Positions 3,634-27,397 of a DNA stretch of 28,571 nt are shown piece after piece. Source of the DNA: Clostridia bacterium (lineage in GTDB: Bacteria > Bacillota > Clostridia > Christensenellales > UBA1242); the NCBI GenBank assembly GCA_046881945.1, contig JBKSMT010000074.1, forward strand, positions 1 through 28,571, written 5' to 3'. The translations under genes were made by a program, and so were the position numbers. Numbering within the stretch: position 1 is the stretch's first letter; the number at the start of each line of letters is the position of its first letter. The notes beneath the pieces were generated by a model. It worked only from the letters and a program-made list of their open reading frames with translations. It was not told the origin of the DNA and did no database searches.

Positions 3634-5589
3634 CTATATATCAAGATTTTTAACTTTATCAGCATTTTCATTGATAAAATCACGTCTTAGTTCTGGACGT
3701 TCGCCCATTAGCATATCAAATATTTCATTTGCCTCAATTGCATCATCAATTTTAACTTGAAGCAGTGTACGCGTTTGAGGATCCATAGTGGTTTCCCAAA
3801 GTTGATCTGGGTCCATTTCGCCTAGACCTTTGTAACGTTGAATTTCTGCCCCCTTGCTTCCATTAAGTTCCAAATCTCTATTTAATTCGTCATCACTATA
3901 ACAATATGTCGACTTTTTACCACGTTGAACCTTGTATAGAGGTGGTTGAGCAATATAAATGTGTCCACCCTCTACTAATGGACGCATAAAGCGGAAGAAG
4001 AATGTTAATAATAATATTCTAATATGCGCACCGTCCACGTCCGCATCGGTCATACATACTATTTTATCATATCTAAGTTTGCTCAAATCACAAGTTTGAC
4101 CAATACCACAACCAAATGCTGTAATCATTGCTTGGATTTCGGCATTTTCAAGCGCTTTGGCTTCACGAACCTTTTCAACGTTTAATATCTTACCGCGTAG
4201 TGGCAAAATTGCTTGGAAACGACGGTCGCGACCTTGCTTAGCGCTTCCGCCTGCCGAGTCCCCCTCGACTATGAATATTTCACACACGCTAGGGTCTTTT
4301 TCGCTACAATCAGCAAGTTTGCCAGGTAGCGCTGTATTTTCAAGCACTGACTTACGTCTTGTCGCTTCCCTAGCATTACGTGCTGCCTCACGTGCCTTTT
4401 GGCTAAGCAAACATTTATTAATCAATTCCTTGGCTTGACGTGGGTGTTCTTCCAAATATATTTCAAGCGCCTCACTTACCGCCTTAGTGGTGTATGTTCT
4501 AATTTCGTCATTACCCAACTTGGTTTTTGTTTGACCTTCAAATTGAGGTTCCTCAACCTTAACACTAACAACAGCTACAAGACCTTCGCGAGTGTCCTCA
4601 CCGCTTAACTTTTGAGTGTCCTTTACAAGTTTGTTAGCAATAGCATAATCATTAACAGTTTTAGCAACGGCAGTCTTAAATCCTTCAAAGTGCTTGCCAC
4701 CCTCCTCAGTACGAATATTGTTAGCGTAGGTGTGGATATTTTCGCTATAACTATCAATGTATTGGAAACTTGCCTCAATTTCACATTGTGCTGGCACCAT
4801 TTCACCATTTTCGTTTTTACGCTTGTATGAATAAATCTTGTCCACGTAAATAGGTGCATCAAACACACGTTCCTTAGTCGCAGTTAATTCTTGCACAAAT
4901 TCGTTAATACCGCCTTCAAACACGTAGTTATCAACCTGCTCTTGACCTTCACGCATATCTTCAATACGAATCTTCAAACCTTTGTTTAGGAACGCAAGTT
5001 CACGAAGACGGACTTTAAGTGTATCGTAGTTAAATATGGTTGTATCAAAGATTTGGTCATCTGGCATAAATGTTACACTTGTACCAGTTTTTTCAATCTT
5101 GCCAACCACTTCAAGACGTCCAGTAGGTCTACCGCGATGATATTCTTGATGATAGTGTTCGCCCTTTTGGAAGATATCAAGTAATAGTGTACTAGACAAT
5201 GCATTAACAACTGACAAACCAACACCATGCAATCCACCAGATATCTTATATCCGCCACCGCCAAACTTACCACCAGCGTGCAATTTGGTTAGTACCAGTT
5301 CTGCCGCACTAACACCTTCCTTAGGGTGAATACCTGTTGGGATTCCACGACCATTATCAATTACTTGCACTGAACCATCTTTAAGGATTGTAACACTAAT
5401 CTCGGTACAGTATCCAGCCAATGCCTCGTCAATACTGTTATCCACAATTTCGGTTACCAAATGATGAAGTCCACGTTCATCAGTAGAACCAATATACATA
5501 CCAGGACGCTTACGTACTGGTTCAAGCCCTTCCAATACTTGAATGTTACTTTCATCATAACTAGTAACTTTACTTAATTCTTCTGCCAT
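3634..5589 (-). CDS. gyrB: DNA gyrase subunit B
   Basis: GHKL motifs EIVDNSIDE, DNGRGIP, GGLHGVG; TOPRIM EGDSAGG, PLRGKILNV, MTDADVDG; RYKGLGEM. Confidence 0.92.
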   Translation of the reverse strand: MAEELSKVTSYDESNIQVLEGLEPVRKRPGMYIGSTDERGLHHLVTEIVDNSIDEALAGYCTEISVTILKDGSVQVIDNGRGIPTGIHPKEGVSAAELVLTKLHAGGKFGGGGYKISGGLHGVGLSVVNALSSTLLLDIFQKGEHYHQEYHRGRPTGRLEVVGKIEKTGTSVTFMPDDQIFDTTIFNYDTLKVRLRELAFLNKGLKIRIEDMREGQEQVDNYVFEGGINEFVQELTATKERVFDAPIYVDKIYSYKRKNENGEMVPAQCEIEASFQYIDSYSENIHTYANNIRTEEGGKHFEGFKTAVAKTVNDYAIANKLVKDTQKLSGEDTREGLVAVVSVKVEEPQFEGQTKTKLGNDEIRTYTTKAVSEALEIYLEEHPRQAKELINKCLLSQKAREAARNAREATRRKSVLENTALPGKLADCSEKDPSVCEIFIVEGDSAGGSAKQGRDRRFQAILPLRGKILNVEKVREAKALENAEIQAMITAFGCGIGQTCDLSKLRYDKIVCMTDADVDGAHIRILLLTFFFRFMRPLVEGGHIYIAQPPLYKVQRGKKSTYCYSDDELNRDLELNGSKGAEIQRYKGLGEMDPDQLWETTMDPQTRTLLQVKIDDAIEANEIFDMLMGERPELRRDFINENADKVKNLDI

Positions 5590-5695
5590 AATTTACTCCT
5601 AAAAATATCAAGATAAACATTTCAAATTTAATCTTATCTTATATTATTCCCTAATCAATTAAAACTTAAAACAATTTATCTATAGTATATAATAT

Positions 5696-5704
5696 ATTAT
5701 AGCA
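5696..5704 (-). promoter_or_regulatory. Extended -10 promoter (TG-C-TATAAT) upstream of gyrB
   Basis: Minus strand TGCTATAAT in AT-rich intergenic DNA; -35 weak. Confidence 0.55.
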
Positions 5705-5761
5705 TATTTATTAATATAAAGAAAGTATTTTACGCCAAAAAGTTTTCAAATTATCAACAAA

Positions 5762-5793
5762 AAATCCACAAATCTTTTACAATTTGTGGATAA
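5762..5793 (-). promoter_or_regulatory. DnaA-box dyad A / terminator hairpin
   Basis: Minus strand TTATCCACA-N14-TGTGGATTT followed by T-run, 9 nt after the stop of 5803..6531; extra TTATCAACA at 5751-5759. Confidence 0.75.
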
Positions 5794-5802
5794 CTTATTT
5801 CA

Positions 5803-6531
5803 CTATTGCATATCACCATGCATAGGCGCAGATTTATAATTCAAGAATCTATCTCCTATTCCCTTTTGGCGTTGTTCAAGTTCAATCATCTTTTTATTAC
5901 TAACATACATTTTGCAACCCAACTCATCAACAATTTGCTTTAATTGCGATTTGGTATAACTTATTAGTTTTAACATTTCCTCAATTTCATCATTTGTTTG
6001 AACTGATTTAAGTTGTTTCAAAATTTTTTGCAATTTCAACAAATAATAATATGTATCCAGTACATCCTTTGCAGTAAGTTTGTTTTCAAATATATTATTA
6101 TTTAATTTTTTTATTAATTCTACTTTTACACTCTCCAAATCAATCCTTGACAACTCATTAGGAAAGCTCTTTGCTTTATCATAAACAATTGATAATGTAT
6201 ATTGTCTTATAATAAATTCCATTATATCGTGATCAAAGTTCATTAGATGCTGATATATTATTCCGTTCAAATCATCAATTTCTTCCTTTAATTTCTCAGC
6301 GCCATCTTCATTCAACTGCAATACCCCACAATGCTTATACCAAATTGGTGGAACTTTATAATTTTCAAACCATGTGTGACGTGACAATTTAATTGCACGA
6401 TTATAAGTTTCATATAATTTTGATAACTTATAATACAATTCAGGCTTGTCAGCTCTATCTTCCCAATGTTCAATAAAGCCTATTACATTGTGCCACTCAG
6501 CATCTTTAATTTTTACACTAATTTCTTCCAT
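5803..6531 (-). CDS. Hypothetical protein (242 aa, largely helical)
   Basis: Long ORF with AAGGAG RBS, consensus promoter and downstream terminator; no family recognised. Confidence 0.8.
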   Translation of the reverse strand: MEEISVKIKDAEWHNVIGFIEHWEDRADKPELYYKLSKLYETYNRAIKLSRHTWFENYKVPPIWYKHCGVLQLNEDGAEKLKEEIDDLNGIIYQHLMNFDHDIMEFIIRQYTLSIVYDKAKSFPNELSRIDLESVKVELIKKLNNNIFENKLTAKDVLDTYYYLLKLQKILKQLKSVQTNDEIEEMLKLISYTKSQLKQIVDELGCKMYVSNKKMIELEQRQKGIGDRFLNYKSAPMHGDMQ

Positions 6532-6557
6532 ACAAACTCTCCTTAAAACTTAATTTC

Positions 6558-6585
6558 ATTATATCACATATCCACATTTTGTCAA
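6558..6585 (-). promoter_or_regulatory. sigmaA promoter TTGACA-16-(TG)TATAAT with DnaA box in spacer
   Basis: -35 at 6580-6585, -10 at 6558-6563, TGTGGATAT (1 mismatch) at 6568-6576. Confidence 0.8.
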
Positions 6586-6599
6586 TATCTAAATAAAAA

Positions 6600-6631
6600 A
6601 AATCCACAAAATATTGCTACTTTGTGGATAA
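6600..6631 (-). promoter_or_regulatory. DnaA-box dyad B / terminator hairpin
   Basis: Minus strand TTATCCACA-N14-TGTGGATTT followed by T-run, 19 nt after the stop of 6651..7061. Confidence 0.75.
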
Positions 6632-6650
6632 CTATAATCACATTTCAAAT

Positions 6651-7061
6651 TTATAGTACTTGTCTGCGATTGTCAATAAATTCCATTATTTGTGTATCTA
6701 TCTCTTCAAGGCATTCAACATGCTCTTTTGCAGTTATTAAACCCGATACAAATTTAACTTGTAAGTCCTTAATTCTATCTAAAATACCTATAATAATCTC
6801 ATCATTAAAAGTCGAAGGTCTTGTATCTCTAGCAAATTTAATATGATACATAATTTGCGCTAACACTTCATCACTCTTAATCATACAGCCAAGACATTCT
6901 ATTTCATCATCAATATTATCCTTAGTTATTCCGCCTACACGGTCGGCAATAATGCGCTTACTTAATGATTTTTTACCACCAAATTGACTTTTATTTTGAC
7001 TACGATTGAATTGTTCACGCCTTAATTGTGCTTTACCCTCAAACGAATTTCTAAATTTCAT
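6651..7061 (-). CDS. Hypothetical protein (136 aa; basic N-terminus, acidic helical C-terminus)
   Basis: ORF with own promoter, AAGGA RBS and terminator; no family recognised. Confidence 0.75.
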   Translation of the reverse strand: MKFRNSFEGKAQLRREQFNRSQNKSQFGGKKSLSKRIIADRVGGITKDNIDDEIECLGCMIKSDEVLAQIMYHIKFARDTRPSTFNDEIIIGILDRIKDLQVKFVSGLITAKEHVECLEEIDTQIMEFIDNRRQVL

Positions 7062-7083
7062 ATTTTTATCCTTTTATAATTGT

Positions 7084-7112
7084 ATTATATTGAACATTTA
7101 TCCACTTGTAAA
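7084..7112 (-). promoter_or_regulatory. sigmaA promoter TTTACA-17-TATAAT with DnaA box in spacer
   Basis: -35 at 7107-7112, -10 at 7084-7089, AGTGGATAA (1 mismatch) at 7098-7106. Confidence 0.75.
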
Positions 7113-7116
7113 TATG

Positions 7117-7156
7117 AAATATCCACAAATTGTAATCAACTTGTGGATAAATTATT
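7117..7156. repeat. 40-bp direct repeat copy 1, containing DnaA-box dyad C
   Basis: AAATATCCACAAATTGTAATCAACTTGTGGATAAATTATT identical to 8513-8552. Confidence 0.95.
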
Positions 7157-7892
7157 AATTGAATTTAAATGGTTCAACATTATTTAATTCTTCGAAATAT
7201 TTTTGAATTAAAACATCTTCATTTTCGCCTTGCTGAATACGTTTAACCATTTCTGCAATTTTCTCATTAACTTTAGTTAGTCGATTAAATTTATCTTCGC
7301 CAAAATCTTTTTTAGTTCTATCTAAGTGCTCTTTCCAAATTTTGTCAATTTCTTGCTTTGTTTTAGCAGGTTTATTTAAATCTAAAACATAATTATAGTC
7401 ACCATCGTCATCATATCCAACATAGTCAAATCCATTTTTTACCATTGCTTTATATGAGCCATAATTTTCAATATCCGCACCGCCATTTATTTTGTTCACA
7501 CCACGAGATTTTGCAATCTCAATAATCTTATTTACCATTTCAACGCCATAACCTTTAAACCAGTGTTTTAATAAAACATTGAATCCAAAATCCCAAAAAT
7601 CTGCAGTTTTTGAATGATAATATTTGCCAAATCTACAAGTACCAACCACTTCGCCAGTTGACTTTAAAAACGCTACTCTGAAATACATGCAATCATCATA
7701 ATCTTCAAGATTTTTAAATGTTGGCTCTGCCTGTTTTGATAATCCCTCTACACTTCCATATGCATCACGCATTGCGTTGTATCTTGCATTAAACGGATTT
7801 GACCAACTATCGCCAACAATTTGTTTTTCTTCGTCAGTTAACATACTAAATGGCTTTAAAATTAATCTTTCGCTTTCAAAAATTTCTGTCAT
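7155..7892 (-). CDS. GNAT family N-acetyltransferase (RimJ/RimL-like)
   Basis: FESERLILKP N-terminus; acetyl-CoA motif HWFKGYGVEMV; N..S..AMVKNGF. Confidence 0.85.
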   Translation of the reverse strand: MTEIFESERLILKPFSMLTDEEKQIVGDSWSNPFNARYNAMRDAYGSVEGLSKQAEPTFKNLEDYDDCMYFRVAFLKSTGEVVGTCRFGKYYHSKTADFWDFGFNVLLKHWFKGYGVEMVNKIIEIAKSRGVNKINGGADIENYGSYKAMVKNGFDYVGYDDDGDYNYVLDLNKPAKTKQEIDKIWKEHLDRTKKDFGEDKFNRLTKVNEKIAEMVKRIQQGENEDVLIQKYFEELNNVEPFKFN

Positions 7893-7904
7893 ATCGCTCT
7901 CCTT

Positions 7905-8498
7905 TTATTTATCCAAATTATGACTTTGTATCCACGAACGAAAATGTTTTTTATTAGGTGTGGTATAGTTATAATCTAGCAATGTTTTTGTATTATCTAT
8001 TAAATTTATTGCTTCATTTAACACCTCTTGCTTATTTTTGCCACAAACATCTATAACAACTTCATTTGGCAATAATGGTCTGTTCTTTATAACTTCATTA
8101 GACTTACTATCGCCTTCTGGTATATAAAGTCCTTGACCAGTTTTATGCCTTTCTTCCATTTGATTTTTAATTTGTTGATAGTTTGATGAAATTAGTCTTA
8201 AAATTATATAATCATAACCCTTAAATAGTTTAGGAAAACTTCTTACCCTTAAATCATCGAAATCTAATGCAATAATATTTCTATAGCCCTTTTTATAAAA
8301 CCATTTCATTTGCATCAATGTATTTTTAAAACACAAATCTTCCTCATAAATTCCAACATCTTTAACCCCTTCCGGAATTACAAATTCAGGTACCATACTT
8401 TGTTCAATATATACGCCATTATAATGTTGATATAACTCTTTTGCTAACGTTGTTTTACCAACCGCACTAGGTCCTATAATAAATATAAAATCTTTCAT
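7905..8498 (-). CDS. P-loop NTPase / nucleotide-kinase-like protein
   Basis: N-terminal Walker A IIGPSAVGKTT; kinase-like length. Confidence 0.8.
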   Translation of the reverse strand: MKDFIFIIGPSAVGKTTLAKELYQHYNGVYIEQSMVPEFVIPEGVKDVGIYEEDLCFKNTLMQMKWFYKKGYRNIIALDFDDLRVRSFPKLFKGYDYIILRLISSNYQQIKNQMEERHKTGQGLYIPEGDSKSNEVIKNRPLLPNEVVIDVCGKNKQEVLNEAINLIDNTKTLLDYNYTTPNKKHFRSWIQSHNLDK

Positions 8499-8512
8499 AC
8501 TTTCTCCTTATT

Positions 8513-8552
8513 AAATATCCACAAATTGTAATCAACTTGTGGATAAATTATT
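8513..8552. repeat. 40-bp direct repeat copy 2, containing DnaA-box dyad D
   Basis: Identical to 7117-7156; box begins 12 nt after the metG stop. Confidence 0.95.
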
Positions 8553-8558
8553 TTTGTA

Positions 8559-10565
8559 TTAACAACATTCGCTTCCGTCGGCGATAATGTCTTTTTCAGG
8601 GCTAAGTAGTGAAATGTTTCCAATTTCATCTTCAGCGCAAACTATCATACCTTCACTCAAATATCCCTTCATCTCTCTTGGTGGAAGATTAGTCACCACT
8701 ACTACTTTTTTGCCAACCATTTGCTCTGGAGTGTACGCCTTTGCAATACCACTTAGTATTGAAAGCGTTTTAGTTCCAATCCTTACAGTTGAGTGAAGTA
8801 GTTTAGACTTTGGCACTGCTTCACATGCTAGCACAACACCTATTTTCATTTGCACTTTTGCAAAATCATCAATAGTAATAGGTTCAACTTCTTTAAACTC
8901 AATCACTGGCGCATTTTCAGCCTTTTGTTTAGCCACAATCTCATCAATAGTTGGCTTAATGTCATCAAATTTAATACGATTAAATAGTATTTGAGGAGCA
9001 TTTGTAATATTAAATTCTTGTGTTAATCCAAAGTTTGCAATATCATTAAATTTACGCGCATTTACACCCAATTCATTAAAGATTTTATTTGCAGTTTCTG
9101 GCATAAATGGAGAAAGTAAATTTGCGCCAATATTAATAGTTTCAAGAAGATTAAATAGTACTGTTGCAAGACGTTCATGCTTACTTTCGTCTTTATTTAA
9201 ATTCCAAGGTTCTGTTTCATCAATATACTTATTTGCACGTCTAAACAAGATCCACAATTCTTCAAGCGCATCAGCAATTTTGTATTCATTAATCTTATTA
9301 AACACTTTTTCTTTTGCACCTATAACAATCGCTTTTAAATCTTCGTCCATTATGTCGGTGATATTATAATTTTTAACCTTTCCGTCAAAGTATTGATTAC
9401 TCATGCTTAAAGTGCGTCTAACTAGGTTGCCCATTACATTGCTTAAATCTGCATTGTTCTTTTCAGTCAATAATTCCCATGTAATTGTTCCGTCTGACAC
9501 AAAAGGCATTTCACGTAACACATAATAACGTACACTATCAACGCCAAAAATTGACGCTAAATCATCAAAATAAAGTACATTACCCTTTGATTTACTCATC
9601 TTTTCGCCACCTTGAAGTAGCCATGGATGACCTAATACTTGCTTAGGCAATTCTTCGCCCAACGCCATTAGGAAAATAGGCCAATAAATAGTGTGAAAAC
9701 GTACAATATCCTTACCCACCACATGCACATCTGCCGGCCATAATTTATTGTATAATTCGCTTGGATTTTCAATATCATAACCGATGCCAGTAATATAGTT
9801 ATTTAATGCATCTAGCCACACATACACAACGTGTTTGTTGTCAAATTCAACAGGAATACCCCATTTAAACGTACTACGACTTACACATAAATCTTGAAGT
9901 TTAGTCTTGATTGTTCCATTTTCAATAGCGGTCAACAATTCCTCATCACTTTTGCCCACAAACTCGTCAGCAAGAATAAAGTTATTTAACATTTCATTTT
10001 TACGGCTAGTAGGTGTCATAAATTCAGGGTGAGTAATAATATGCTTTAATAATCTGTTTGCATAGTTGCTCATTTTAAAGAAATATGCTTCCTCTTGACT
10101 AGGTTTCACTTCACGGCCACAATCTGGGCACTTACCATCAACTAATTGACTTTCAGTCCAAAAACTTTCACATGGAGTACAATAAAGCCCTTCATAATGA
10201 CCTTTGTAAATATCTCCTTGCTCATAGAACTTTTTAAATATCTTTTGAACGCATTTTTCGTGATCCGCGTCTGTGGTACGAATAAATTTATCGTATGAAA
10301 TATTCATAAAGTCCCAAAGGTCCTTTATATCTCCCGCAATATTGTCAACAAAAGCCTTAGGTGTCAACCCTTTTTCTTTAGCTTTCATTTCAATTTTTTC
10401 GCCATGTTCATCTGTTCCTGTCATAAAGAAAACATCATATCCCTGCATTCGCTTAGCACGCGCTATAACGTCCGACAAAATAATCTCGTAAGTATTTCCA
10501 ATATGAGGCTTGCCCGAAGTATAGGCAATAGCAGTTGTAATATAAAATTTTTCTTTATTTTCCAT
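8559..10565 (-). CDS. metG: Methionine--tRNA ligase with C-terminal tRNA-binding domain
   Basis: YTSGKPHIGN (HIGH), GTDEHG, CTPC/CPDC Zn knuckle, KMSKS, C-terminal Trbp111-like domain. Confidence 0.95.
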   Translation of the reverse strand: MENKEKFYITTAIAYTSGKPHIGNTYEIILSDVIARAKRMQGYDVFFMTGTDEHGEKIEMKAKEKGLTPKAFVDNIAGDIKDLWDFMNISYDKFIRTTDADHEKCVQKIFKKFYEQGDIYKGHYEGLYCTPCESFWTESQLVDGKCPDCGREVKPSQEEAYFFKMSNYANRLLKHIITHPEFMTPTSRKNEMLNNFILADEFVGKSDEELLTAIENGTIKTKLQDLCVSRSTFKWGIPVEFDNKHVVYVWLDALNNYITGIGYDIENPSELYNKLWPADVHVVGKDIVRFHTIYWPIFLMALGEELPKQVLGHPWLLQGGEKMSKSKGNVLYFDDLASIFGVDSVRYYVLREMPFVSDGTITWELLTEKNNADLSNVMGNLVRRTLSMSNQYFDGKVKNYNITDIMDEDLKAIVIGAKEKVFNKINEYKIADALEELWILFRRANKYIDETEPWNLNKDESKHERLATVLFNLLETINIGANLLSPFMPETANKIFNELGVNARKFNDIANFGLTQEFNITNAPQILFNRIKFDDIKPTIDEIVAKQKAENAPVIEFKEVEPITIDDFAKVQMKIGVVLACEAVPKSKLLHSTVRIGTKTLSILSGIAKAYTPEQMVGKKVVVVTNLPPREMKGYLSEGMIVCAEDEIGNISLLSPEKDIIADGSECC

Positions 10566-10577
10566 AAATTTTTCTCC

Positions 10578-11351
10578 TTATAACTTTTTATCAAGTTCAA
10601 CAGCACATTCAAATGCTAGTGATATAATTTTCTTTTTACTATCGTTGAGTTCGTTAACCGCAAGACTACGAACATCATATTCTTCCGCACCAAGATTATC
10701 GGCCGCATAAAAGAATTGTCCAAAATTAACACCCCTAAATTTAGCCACGGAAGCCATTGCTGAACATTCCATATCCACAGTAATAGCACCTTGTTTTTTA
10801 CGCATTTCAACCTTATCTTTAGTTTCACGATATAATGCGTCAGTTGTCCAAGTTTTACCTTTACGATAATTAATGTTTTTTAATTTCATAAAATCTTCAA
10901 TAATATTAACACACTTTTTATTAATTTCAACCTCGTCACTAGCAGGCAAATAATGGTAACTTGCACCTTCATCACGTAACGCGCTTGTTGGTATTATTAT
11001 TGAATAATCCTCAATCTCTGCATCCAAACAACCACAACAACCAACCAAAAGCAAGCTCTTAACTCCCATTACTATCATTTCCTCAAAATTGCCTACTGCA
11101 GCCGCAGCCCCAACAGGCGTTTGATAAAAAGCGATATCCGTGCCACCAACATTAATTTTATACACAGGATAATCTTTAGTCATGCTTTTGATAATCCCTA
11201 TTTGTTTAGCATTGTATTTTTGCTCAATTTCTTTTACTAACTCTTTATCAAAAATAGACATTGCTATTTTAGGAAATCCTTCAACTTTGCTTTGAAATAC
11301 ATCAGGATTTAAAACCGCTAATTTATTGGTATCAAATTGTTCTAATAACAT
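10578..11351 (-). CDS. Nucleoside phosphorylase (PNP/UDP family)
   Basis: GCCGCL, ALRDEGASYHY, TWTTDALYRET, VDMECSA; start moved to ATG 11351 behind AAAGGAG. Confidence 0.85.
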   Translation of the reverse strand: MLLEQFDTNKLAVLNPDVFQSKVEGFPKIAMSIFDKELVKEIEQKYNAKQIGIIKSMTKDYPVYKINVGGTDIAFYQTPVGAAAAVGNFEEMIVMGVKSLLLVGCCGCLDAEIEDYSIIIPTSALRDEGASYHYLPASDEVEINKKCVNIIEDFMKLKNINYRKGKTWTTDALYRETKDKVEMRKKQGAITVDMECSAMASVAKFRGVNFGQFFYAADNLGAEEYDVRSLAVNELNDSKKKIISLAFECAVELDKKL

Positions 11352-11374
11352 ATACACTCCTTTATATTTCAAAC

Positions 11375-24486: not shown

Positions 24487-25497
24487 TTACAACTCCAAAT
24501 TTGCTTTTGGTGCAAGACTTCCATCGGCAAAAGCTTTTCCTAGTAGGACATCAAAGTATGCACTACTTCCTATCATTGCTGCATTATCGGTACAATATTT
24601 TAAGTCTGGAAGATAACACTTTATCCCTTTTTGTGCACACTTTGTGGATAACTCTTGTCGTAAAAGTTTATTTGCTGACACACCACCGGCAACTACAACC
24701 TTATCAAGCCCACTTTCAAGTGTAGCACGTATAGTTTTATCCACAAGTTCATCAACTGCACACTTTTGAAAACTTGCACAAATATCGTTAACAGGAATAG
24801 TTAAATTCTTTTGTTCAAGGTTATGAATATAGTTAATAACTGCCGTCTTTTTACCACTAAAACTAAAATTGTAACCCAAACTATCATTTGGTTTTACAAA
24901 CACAATATTATCCTTTCCCTGTTCTGCTGCCTTTGACACTTTTGGTCCACCAGGATAACCCAAACCCATCACACGTGCAACTTTGTCAAAACTTTCACCT
25001 ACTGCGTCATCAAGAGTGTTACCTATTACAGTATGTTGGTTATATTCGTCTACCCTAATAATTGCTGTATGTCCACCGCTAACCAGCAAACACATAAAAG
25101 GTGGCTTTAAATCAGGATAAGTAATATAGTTAGACGCAATATGACCATTAATATGATTAACTGCAATTAGTGGTTTGCCAGTTGCAAACGACAATGCCTT
25201 AGCATAACTAATACCAACCAACAAGCAACCAACAAGTCCTGCACCATAGGTTACCGCAATAGCGTCAATATCGTCAAGAGTCTTATCGGCTTCCTTAAGT
25301 GCTTGATTAACCACGTTGTCAATAGCAGTTATGTGGTTACGTGACGCAACCTCAGGCACAACGCCACCAAATAATGTATGAATATCAATTTGACTAGACA
25401 CCACGTTGGAAAGAACTGTGCGACCATCAACTACCACCGCACAACTTGTTTCATCACAACTACTTTCAATTGCTAAAATTGTATAATTATTTTTCAT
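24487..25497 (-). CDS. tsaD: tRNA N6-adenosine threonylcarbamoyltransferase TsaD
   Basis: [60 protein letters not shown]; start ATG 25497. Confidence 0.96.
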
Positions 25498-27153: not shown

Positions 27154-27357
27154 ATGGAAACATTTGGAGATATCTTAAAGCGATTGCGACAAGAAAGGCA
27201 TATAGGACAAATTGAATTAGCAAAACAAATAGGTGTTGGCAAATCCATAATCAGTTTGTGGGAATTAAATACTTGCGAGCCAACTTTATCCAAACTAATT
27301 GCATTGTCTAAATTTTTTAATGTTTCCATCGACTATTTAGCTGGATTAGAAATTTAA
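27154..27357 (+). CDS. XRE family helix-turn-helix regulator (67 aa)
   Basis: FGDILKRLR.ER...Q.ELAKQIGV.KS.IS.WE....EP.L..L..LSKFFNVSIDYL. Confidence 0.92.
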   Translation: METFGDILKRLRQERHIGQIELAKQIGVGKSIISLWELNTCEPTLSKLIALSKFFNVSIDYLAGLEI

Positions 27358-27359
27358 AT

Positions 27360-27397
27360 TTATCCACACCAACATCGTATTTAGTGGATAATTTTTT
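27360..27397 (+). promoter_or_regulatory. DnaA-box dyad E / terminator hairpin
   Basis: TTATCCACA-N14-AGTGGATAA followed by T6, 2 nt after the XRE stop. Confidence 0.75.

Follow-up and report, generated by a model that had tools for sequence, protein, structure and literature searches.

The window, a stretch of 28,571 nucleotides, belongs to a fragmented metagenome-assembled genome of Candidatus Onthoplasma (Christensenellales) (921,973 bp, 0.92 Mb; 168 contigs; 80% complete; hereafter G000). Between metG and gyrB lies a series of small genes that all run in one direction and are separated by short inverted repeats (dyads); in the relatives G022 and G068, dnaA is about 33 kb away. We considered a replication origin within the window and dropped it, because GC skew is negative throughout, the genes are unidirectional, and dnaA lies some 33 kb away in the relatives. 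The features, in the direction of transcription, are as follows.

8559 to 10565, minus strand: metG, methionyl-tRNA synthetase, the conserved upstream flank (Pfam tRNA-synt_1g, E 3e-103)
8513 to 8552, minus strand: repeat copy 1, with dyad Da at 8517 to 8544, a hairpin right after the metG stop
7905 to 8498, minus strand: P-loop kinase-like gene, 197 aa, with a Walker-A P-loop and a weak AAA_18 match; promoterless
7155 to 7892, minus strand: GNAT N-acetyltransferase (GNAT245), 245 aa, matching Acetyltransf_3/Acetyltransf_1, of the Acetyltransf_3 type
7117 to 7156, minus strand: repeat copy 2, with dyad Da at 7121 to 7148, a terminator-like hairpin between the GNAT gene and the orf136 promoter
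7084 to 7112, minus strand: predicted orf136 promoter, sigma-70 type, TTTACA-17-TATAAT (scan 11/12), its spacer containing an 8/9 DnaA box
6651 to 7061, minus strand: orf136, resident array gene for a clade-specific, fast-evolving helical protein
6602 to 6629, minus strand: dyad Db, predicted terminator hairpin after orf136, whose 12-bp stem carries a GCAA tetraloop and is followed by 8 T in a row
6558 to 6585, minus strand: predicted orf242 promoter, TTGACA-16-TATAAT with an extended -10 (scan 12/12) and an 8/9 DnaA box in the spacer
5803 to 6531, minus strand: orf242, an ORF and the second cassette gene, found in only 3 of 13 alleles
5764 to 5791, minus strand: dyad Dc, predicted terminator hairpin ahead of the gyrB leader
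3634 to 5589, minus strand: gyrB, the conserved downstream flank (Pfam)

The positions 7117 to 7156 and 8513 to 8552 are identical over 40 bp and lie 1396 bp apart from start to start, as the sequence-only reading had noted and as both the sequence and a repeat finder confirmed. Identity stops at 7116/8512 on one side and at 7157/8553 on the other. The 1356 bp between the copies hold exactly two genes, the minus-strand P-loop kinase and GNAT ORFs, also as described; GNAT245 starts 12 nt past the kinase stop, and 2 nt of its own stop codon lie within the repeat. The kinase belongs to the NMP/shikimate-kinase-like superfamily, with PDB profile matches to shikimate, NMP, and nicotinamide-riboside kinases (E 1e-3 to 1e-2) and 574 homologues; within the genus it was found in G000 only, plus one pseudogene remnant, and in other genomes its family often adjoins GNATs. 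GNAT245 occurs in 3 of 64 genus genomes. Homologues of either gene at other loci have no dyads alongside. The proposal that the pair modifies antibiotics is still a guess, since the matches are generic P-loop kinase and GNAT ones: no significant match to resistance kinase or acetyltransferase families was obtained (the best, NCBIfam ArsN1a, scored 16 bits against a cut-off of 170), and PADLOC returned noise-level matches only and no defence-system assignment for the four array genes.

The orf136 family has 94 members, all of the Candidatus Onthoplasma clade, and is present in 11 of the 13 alleles described below. The protein gave no Pfam or NCBIfam match and no structural match at E<1, and its AlphaFold model (pLDDT 82) consists of five helices. 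We therefore rejected the idea that orf136 is a recombinase or adopts a known DNA-binding fold, since the model is a simple bundle of helices that shows neither the fold nor a motif of a recombinase. No integrase was visible to the sequence-only reading, and the Pfam/NCBIfam scan of the window ORFs likewise found no recombinase, no integrase, no PF00589, and no IS or transposon.

The core dyad, ATCCACAA-N12-TTGTGGAT, has four matches in the window compared with 0.00 expected from 100 shuffles, and the same number in the whole 921,973-bp assembly, all between metG and gyrB. Looser matches fall in the array, at position 27362, and on contig C28, and nowhere else. A generic REP-like or genome-wide repeat was accordingly rejected, the dyad being confined to the array locus. 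Each genome carries two to four elements, all at one locus. The outer arms are invariant in 19 distinct dyads. Among the G000 elements only the Da pair shares 40 bp; exact sharing between unlike dyads is limited to arms of 10 + 8 nt, the remainder being about 70% identical and AT-rich, and homology past the arms between unlike modules is not significant.

Each dyad is predicted to form an RNA-level hairpin with a stem of 10 to 12 bp. Folding energies on the sense strand range from -11 to -15 kcal/mol, and most dyads are followed by a T-run. By sequence, the elements look like intrinsic terminators: they lie 3' of genes and combine a stable hairpin with a U-tract behind it, which is weak in copy 1. 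The terminator scan of the gene strand flagged three of the four dyads (0.8 expected), including copy 2, where 13 pairs enclose a 4-nt loop and the tail is rich in T; the exception was copy 1, despite a gene-strand fold of -14.6 kcal/mol. The variation among dyads points in the same direction. At inner stem pairs 9 to 11 of the 19 distinct dyads, the gene strand has 19 G-T wobbles and 4 mismatches, whereas the opposite strand has 23 mismatches, and the gene-strand fold is the more stable in 17 of the 19. In relatives the spacer type of Db is kept, with the GNRA loops GAGA, GUGA, and GCGA. This pattern suggests that the inner stem evolves by RNA-type G-U pairing rules and not as a protein-binding or crossover core. 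The other terminators in the window have stems unrelated to each other, and thus a common stem is not the norm.

The stems are also DnaA boxes. The invariant outer stem together with a conserved 5' TT makes a perfect DnaA box (TTATCCACAA / TTGTGGAT), and the TT, which the hairpin itself does not need, precedes 33 of 35 dyads, giving a perfect TTATCCACA. Perfect boxes number 41 in the genome, where about 12 are expected; the source contig has 8 of the 41, and four dyads and two promoter boxes fall within 2.8 kb of G000, so that the locus has the makeup of a DnaA-box cluster, with several consensus TTATCCACA boxes in intergenic positions near oriC. In G022, a similar box hairpin with a T-run follows dnaN, beside the box-rich dnaA-dnaN spacer. 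DnaA may bind the dyad stems. The description of the repeat as a DnaA dyad therefore holds for its stems, but the elements appear to be intrinsic terminator hairpins in the first place, under selection as RNA, with DnaA boxes for stems.

A hairpin with a T-run followed by a sigma-70 promoter is the layout common to all relatives. Near-consensus promoters of their own precede orf136, orf242, orf314, and orf190, and only the cassettes that come first after metG lack one. The TATTTACA promoter of orf136 is kept in relatives; the DnaA box in its spacer, like the DnaA boxes within promoter spacers in general, is not. The weak T-run in the tail of copy 1 leads directly into the ribosome-binding site of the kinase, leaving no space for a promoter. 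Copy 1 probably acts as a leaky terminator, the insert being transcribed by read-through from metG.

Comparing the metG-gyrB interval across relatives, as the sequence-only reading had proposed, yielded both empty single-dyad alleles and alleles with different genes between the dyads. Thirteen alleles from relatives hold 11 gene families in varying combinations, and the order and neighbours of the cassettes differ between alleles. All alleles derive from metagenome assemblies, in which repeats can give chimeric joins; an orf136 profile search of JGI metagenome contigs added no further alleles. The flanks are conserved, metG being 92 to 94% and gyrB 96 to 99% identical in relatives; the neighbouring dtd-metG interval is variable too, and dyads are absent there. 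The metG-gyrB interval of the Candidatus Onthoplasma clade is thus a small hypervariable cassette array near oriC, and because different genes lie between the dyads in 13 alleles, the suspicion that the dyads may be hotspots of gene acquisition is borne out, with genes both gained and lost there.

A precise empty site with one dyad is present in two species and in one 98%-identical metagenome contig. In G065 and G022, the lone dyad can be aligned with either of the G000 copies, and the 40-bp repeat is exactly where homology ends. Among gut metagenomes, a contig of run X3 goes from 7116 straight to 8513, skipping precisely 1396 bp; it carries the 40-mer (40 nt shared), and its flanks match at about 98% identity. 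Together these alleles support the earlier claim that the kinase-GNAT segment is an insertion at a dyad. Two further joints, 5790 to 7147 in the X1 contig and 6632 to 8572 in the X4 contig, also fall at dyads. In all alleles the gene flanks abut the dyad arms directly, and the gyrB leader abuts the 3' arm of whichever dyad precedes it. Some cassette borders have no dyad (kinase|GNAT, orf82|orf136, and GNAT169|GNAT245).

Two further parts of the sequence-only reading fared less well. In L034 the kinase is accompanied by a different GNAT, and L082 and L084 have GNAT245 but lack the kinase; because each is found apart, the two are not an obligate pair, and we abandoned the idea of a single functional unit or conserved operon. 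The identical repeat had been taken as a recent duplication. Dyad pairs, however, bracket other cassettes in L034 (28 bp), L066 (41 bp with 2 mismatches), and L084 (31 bp), identical or near-identical within a pair and with lineage-specific spacers, and since such pairs occur in three other lineages, one pair alone is no proof of a one-off recent duplication. Between G000 and L082, the spacers of two dyads are swapped and the flanks remain collinear. The bracketing pairs and the swapped spacers may be signs of excision and re-entry.

Because different small genes are swapped at the same hairpins in related gut bacteria, the hairpins are likely to act as recombination joints. We consider it probable that the cassettes are shuffled by recombination in the hairpin arms, without a dedicated integrase, and that the repeat represents two copies of one terminator hairpin. 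This explanation builds on how the array is laid out, on the RNA-level signature of the hairpins and the varying gene content, and on the findings that breakpoints fall at dyads and that empty sites occur. Small accessory genes, mostly with their own sigma-70 promoters, would be kept apart by the hairpins, and genes would be gained, lost, and reordered via crossovers inside the conserved arms. The promoterless kinase-GNAT245 insert has the metG terminator on one side and the orf136 promoter on the other. Recombination between the 40-bp copies would delete it and restore the single-dyad allele of the relatives, presumably freeing a 1396-bp circle that carries one dyad and could re-enter at any dyad. 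Between identical dyads, host recombination is the most likely route, and between unlike dyads, hairpin-promoted, RecA-independent template switching. The metagenome evidence on junctions comes from assembled Logan contigs of other samples, in which assembly drops rare variants, and they showed neither a circle nor an excision junction inside a single population.

Through misassembly, the kinase-GNAT segment could have been joined wrongly at a 40-mer common to co-occurring strains, given that the genome is incomplete and in many contigs, that dyads are common to several strains, and that no run with the exact sequence was found, the best sharing 0.18 of words. We judge this very improbable. 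The 40-bp repeat is shorter than ordinary reads, the insertion is clean relative to the empty alleles, and each of the three kinds of junction turns up again in relatives assembled independently: metG|dyad|kinase in the L034 to L036 assemblies, kinase|GNAT245 in the X1 and X2 run contigs, and GNAT245|dyad|orf136 in L082/L083. The dyads might instead be passive, one terminator per gene, with segments replaced by homologous recombination in the metG and gyrB flanks after DNA uptake and the repeat an incidental terminator duplication. Flanks that are 92 to 99% identical among relatives are adequate for allelic replacement, the dtd-metG interval varies without dyads, and some cassette borders lack them. 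The breakpoints, however, lie at the 28- to 40-bp dyads and not in the flanking genes, one cassette is found in differing orders and beside differing neighbours, and spacers have been swapped while the flanks stayed collinear. In addition, bracketing dyads are repeatedly identical with lineage-specific spacers, while the window's other terminator stems are mutually unrelated, and passive dyads are accordingly a distinctly unlikely account.

Recombination in the arms has a further competitor in a dedicated site-specific system, in which an unlinked recombinase or factor (orf136, or DnaA-assisted pairing) would recognize the 28-bp dyad and move one-dyad circles. Junctions lie precisely within dyads in all alleles, identical pairs occur in four lineages, and the outer arms do not vary across the 19 distinct dyads. 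RecA cannot recombine efficiently over the 10 + 8 nt that unlike dyads have in common, which leaves room for a dedicated factor, and candidates are at hand: orf136 is the resident gene (11 of the 13 alleles), tyrosine recombinases were found in all six genomes searched (two in G000, on contigs other than that of the array), and large serine recombinases in three of five. Nevertheless, no recombinase lies in or near the array, and orf136 is modelled as a helical bundle without recombinase features. Tyrosine and serine recombinases require matching central regions, but unlike spacers have been exchanged here, and the inner stem follows RNA G-U pairing, unlike a crossover core. Hairpin-dependent transposition of the IS200/IS605 or REP/RAYT type would call for a Y1 HUH transposase (PF01797), and none was found in the five genomes searched (G000, G022, G068, G069, and G065, of which G000 and G065 are incomplete). 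We therefore regard a dedicated system as unlikely. The bolder form of the idea, that the DnaA-box hairpins are attachment sites of an undescribed integrase-less capture platform by the origin, with DnaA or orf136 promoting exchange in the arms, seems to us equally doubtful; if true, one 28-bp element would be terminator, initiator-binding site, and recombination site at once.

The closest known counterparts of the array are the promoter-early stem-loops (PeSLs), mobile regulatory cassettes of T4-type phages in which a terminator stem-loop and a strong sigma-70 promoter are repeated between small ORFans in a hyperplastic region, and for which a mini-circle carrying one chimeric element has been proposed (Arbiol et al. 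2010, PMC2839356; Comeau et al. 2014, PMC4122927). The array shares with them a composite of terminator stem-loop and sigma-70 promoter between small genes (promoters scoring 12/12 and 11/12 here), indel breakpoints of close relatives at the elements, with an ORF between two elements in one and a single element in the other, and a proposed circle with one element. By contrast, about 100 bp are conserved in PeSLs compared with the 10 + 8-nt arms here, and the present array lies in a bacterial chromosome beside gyrB near oriC and not in a phage, with DnaA boxes as stems, two to four elements per genome at one locus, and no phage recombination system. The best reading by analogy is that the array is a chromosomal counterpart of phage PeSL modules.

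The proposed label of an integron-like array is apt as an analogy. Like an integron or CALIN, the array has unidirectional small accessory genes with imperfectly conserved hairpin sites between them, first cassettes that are promoterless and read from upstream, and a cassette content that varies among close relatives. Unlike an integron, it has no adjoining IntI, and most cassettes have their own promoter in place of a common Pc. An attC site spans 57 to 141 bp, with R''-L''...L'-R' boxes and an imperfect bottom-strand hairpin with extrahelical bases; the sites here are, by architecture, 28-bp hairpins with 10 to 12 perfect or G-U pairs, DnaA-box arms, a T-run, and sense-strand pairing. The array is therefore not an integron, as it has neither integrase nor attC.

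Other systems resemble the array in single respects. In the minimal mobile elements of Neisseria and comparable chromosomal islets, alternative small cassettes lie between housekeeping genes, and their exchange is ascribed to homologous recombination in the flanks. The array likewise has alternative small cassettes at one site between conserved genes and no mobility genes, but its junctions are in internal repeated hairpins and its cassettes are reordered within the site. The oriC-proximal DnaA-box clusters of Bacillus subtilis and datA of E. coli consist of intergenic consensus boxes, and the array similarly places such boxes within tens of kb of oriC; here, however, the box pairs are also predicted terminator hairpins and recombination joints, and box number varies with cassette number between species. 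In the pdif modules of Acinetobacter plasmids, gene modules are flanked by Xer sites of 11-6-11 architecture. Small gene modules bracketed by 28-bp dyad-symmetric sites in varying contexts are common to both, but the sites here are unlike Xer sites, chromosomal, and predicted RNA terminators.

Gene-shuffling terminator/promoter modules are already known from T4-type phages; those described here are chromosomal and origin-proximal and have DnaA-box stems. Repeated DnaA-box dyads outside oriC can thus be terminators or recombination scars and not origins, which is a warning for annotation. The array also provides a natural system in which to ask whether structured terminators generally attract gene gain. 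DnaA-box number near oriC shifts with every cassette, and a possible feedback on replication control is a question that can now be asked. For an uncultured gut bacterium with a genome of about 1 Mb, the metG-gyrB interval would offer one dedicated, safe slot in which to try accessory genes, where a single short element would serve as transcription terminator, DnaA box, and mark of the recombination joint.

A repeat search of the window returned two identical copies of a 40-bp repeat, at 8513-8552 (copy 1) and 7117-7156 (copy 2), 1396 bp apart, and the open reading frames show that the sequence-only reading had correctly placed two genes between them.

7155-7892, minus strand: GNAT acetyltransferase of 245 aa (GNAT245), between the repeat copies
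7905-8498, minus strand: P-loop protein of 197 aa with a Walker-A motif (the kinase), between the repeat copies

Each copy contains a dyad (Da), that is, a hairpin-forming inverted repeat. In gene direction, the array of the window's own genome (G000) runs metG, Da copy 1, kinase, GNAT245, Da copy 2, promoter, orf136, Db, promoter, orf242, Dc, gyrB leader, gyrB, and gyrA. The dyad core ATCCACAA-N12-TTGTGGAT has four matches in the window (0.00 expected from shuffles) and none in the remainder of the 921,973-bp assembly. The two top sigma-70 matches of the region lie after copy 2 (11/12) and after Db (12/12); copy 1 leads directly into the kinase ribosome-binding site, with no space for a promoter. 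The insert would most simply be expressed by read-through from metG across copy 1, which has a weak U-tract. Every gene of the region is encoded on the minus strand, and the window shows negative GC skew from end to end, which rules out a replication origin inside it.

On the gene strand, each of the four dyads folds into a stem of 10 to 12 bp with a loop of 4 to 8 nt (−11 to −15 kcal/mol), and in several species Db has a GNRA tetraloop. A T-run follows three of the four, which are called as intrinsic terminators, against 0.8 expected; the stems of the window's other terminators are unrelated. Among 19 distinct dyads from 11 alleles, inner stem positions vary while pairing is kept. At pairs 9 to 11 of these dyads, the sense strand shows 19 G-T wobbles with 4 mismatches, compared with 23 mismatches on the antisense strand. 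Such asymmetry is characteristic of selection for an RNA hairpin and speaks against a cruciform in DNA, or a simple palindrome for protein binding, as the selected form.

The outer 8 bp of the 19 dyads are invariant, and TT precedes 33 of 35 dyads on the 5' side, completing a perfect DnaA box, TTATCCACA, although this TT is superfluous for the hairpin. G000 has 41 perfect boxes (approximately 12 expected), eight of them on the window contig. In G022, another species genome of the genus, the dnaA-dnaN spacer is rich in DnaA boxes. Given the RNA-type pairing, the conserved TT and outer arms, the box enrichment, and the box hairpins found elsewhere, we read the dyads as dual-constraint elements, predicted RNA terminators made of putative DnaA boxes. 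The palindrome TTATCCACAA-N12-TTGTGGATAA (20 bases) is widespread over many phyla and usually lacks a T-run, as origin-type box pairs would; it occurs at at least 120 loci, in hosts including Lachnospiraceae, Christensenellaceae, Prevotella, Gammaproteobacteria, Treponema, and Ktedonobacter. The 80 loci examined (L085-L164) contain 138 matches, of which 110 are palindromic throughout and often have a third box within the spacer. Inverted DnaA boxes may favor this spacing.

Further boxes lie outside the four dyads. A fifth DnaA-box hairpin (27362-27389), with a slightly different right arm and a T-run, stands outside the array, directly 3' of a small plus-strand XRE-type HTH ORF ending near 27350. 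The box in the orf242-promoter spacer (6558-6585) is kept among relatives by locus L082 alone, and that in the orf136-promoter spacer (7084-7112) by none; both promoters are conserved. The tsaD (gcp) coding region carries two perfect inverted boxes (24643-24651 and 24737-24745); in B. subtilis, a DnaA-box cluster adjoins gcp. Four perfect boxes just upstream of a near-consensus promoter in G000 (contig C28:5020-5120) could be part of oriC or of a DnaA-regulated gene. In G022 (L060:6386-6416), dnaA, the box-rich spacer, and dnaN are followed by a DnaA-box hairpin with a T-run, a promoter, and rpmH, an unusual placement of rpmH. All data are metagenome assemblies, and the G000 assembly (80% complete) lacks the dnaA region, including dnaA, dnaN, and rpmH.

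The genus, Candidatus Onthoplasma (Christensenellales), has genomes of approximately 1 Mb. Within it, a subclade represented by 7 of 64 species genomes and many metagenome contigs carries the dyad array and the orf136 family, and the array lies approximately 33 kb from dnaA in G022 and G068. Comparison of the metG-gyrB interval gave 13 alleles, 12 from relatives and that of G000, which differ in content and comprise 11 gene families by clustering.

Gene and dyad order, in gene direction, in alleles of relatives (G, species genomes; L, loci; D with or without a letter, dyads)
G022: metG, Da, orf135, Db, gyrB
G065: metG, Da, orf143, Db, orf242, Dc
G003 / L062: metG, Dc, GNAT171, Da, orf82-orf136, Db, gyrB
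G069: metG, Da, GNAT171, decayed Dc, orf314, Dc, orf87-orf136, Db, gyrB
G031: metG, Db-like, orf314, Da, orf136, gyrB
G068: metG, Dc, orf226-orf158, D, orf139, D, gyrB
L034: metG, Dx, kinase-GNAT163, Dx, orf135
L066: metG, Dy, GNAT171, Dy, orf136, Db
L067: metG, Dc, orf84-orf135, Db
L068: dtd, D, orf136, Dc, gyrB (without metG)
L082: dtd, GNAT169, GNAT245, Da, orf136, Dc-like, orf238, Db, gyrB
L084: metG, Db-like, GNAT245, Dz, orf190, Dz, orf84

Clearly, the relatives do not all carry the same genes and both repeat copies, and empty single-dyad alleles exist (G065 and G022). The dtd-metG interval (10578-11372 in the window) also varies, without involvement of dyads, as compared in L062, L066, L067, and L068: it holds PNP in the window and Peptidase_S51, a GNAT plus an SMI1/SUKH gene, or nothing in relatives. 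metG is missing from its usual place in L068 and L082.

Against the two empty alleles, homology to G000 breaks off where copy 1 ends and picks up again where copy 2 begins. Their single dyad aligns with both G000 copies, which makes the structure a clean insertion with a 40-bp duplicated target and supports the proposed entry of the cassette at a dyad. The dyad arms meet the neighboring genes directly in all alleles: the left arm follows the 3' end of the gene before it, and the right arm leads into the T-run, promoter, or leader of the gene after it. Assembled contigs from four gut metagenomes, placed on 5400-8900, showed joints at dyads. One contig (X3) joins 7116 to 8513, a 1396-bp skip in which 40 nt fit both sides and the flanks have 2 mismatches in 121 nt; another (X1) joins 5790 to 7147, linking GNAT245 to the gyrB leader through one dyad; and a third (X4) joins 6632 to 8572, uniting metG, Db, and orf242. 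Identical or near-identical bracketing dyads recur in three more lineages, each with its own spacer: L034 (28 bp), L066 (41 bp, including 2 mismatches, the extent seen in G000), and L084 (31 bp). G000 and L082 align collinearly for 2.2 kb (80% identity), except that the two dyads around the orf242 cassette have exchanged their 12-nt spacers. Exit of a cassette as a putative circle with one dyad and re-entry at a dyad, with crossover in either conserved arm, would explain both the identical pairs and the swapped spacers.

The kinase sequence includes a GxxxxGKT loop together with conserved Asp and Arg residues. Profile comparison with solved structures gave weak, generic matches to shikimate, adenylyl-sulfate, and nicotinamide-riboside kinases; GNAT245 matches Acetyltransf_3 alone. 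Of the 64 species genomes, three carry GNAT245, and G000 is the only one with the kinase, apart from one pseudogene. A remnant of the kinase family in another species of the genus, L070 (G084:C1:54557-54913), shows 45% identity and is interrupted by two in-frame TAA codons. The kinase and GNAT245 can be separated: L082 and L084 have GNAT245 without the kinase, and the kinase partner in L034 is an unrelated GNAT. Antibiotic modification by the pair, as had been suggested, is unsupported. Since the kinase family in other genomes often adjoins GNATs and once an APH-family gene, a shared small-molecule theme is possible. The clade-restricted orf136 family (6651-7061 in the window) comprises 94 proteins of approximately 135 aa and evolves fast (36-85% identity versus 92-99% for neighboring genes), with an invariant basic N-terminal motif, LRR...GKKSL..RII. 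Its AlphaFold model has five helices (pLDDT 82) and no match among known folds.

The 40-bp identity of the Da pair could support ordinary homologous deletion. Unlike dyads have only 10 + 8 nt in common, which makes RecA-type recombination between them unlikely. Palindromes stimulate deletion between short repeats, and the most economical idea for unlike dyads is hairpin-promoted, RecA-independent template switching at stalled forks. Less probably, a dedicated site-specific factor recombines the dyads; tyrosine and large serine recombinases are present elsewhere in these genomes. However, a search of the window's genes found no recombinase or transposase, and five genomes searched contained no Y1 transposase. 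Moreover, tyrosine and serine recombinases require matching cores, whereas the dyads exchange unlike spacers; the core of the site obeys RNA-type pairing rules; and orf136 is modeled as a plain five-helix protein.

The feature is real, and the structural inference of the sequence-only reading is largely right. Its integron-like description holds as an analogy; the array is not an integron proper, since it lacks IntI and attC sites and has cassettes that carry promoters of their own. Among described systems, the nearest is PeSL of T4-type phages, in which composite terminator/promoter modules lie beside ORFans in hyperplastic regions, indel breakpoints fall at modules, and proposed mini-circles carry one chimeric module (PMC2839356; PMC4122927). 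The array shares this logic, but it is chromosomal, origin-proximal, and confined to one locus, with DnaA-box stems and very short conserved arms. It is best filed as a new form of terminator/promoter-module-mediated cassette shuffling, with a possibly unusual recombination mechanism.
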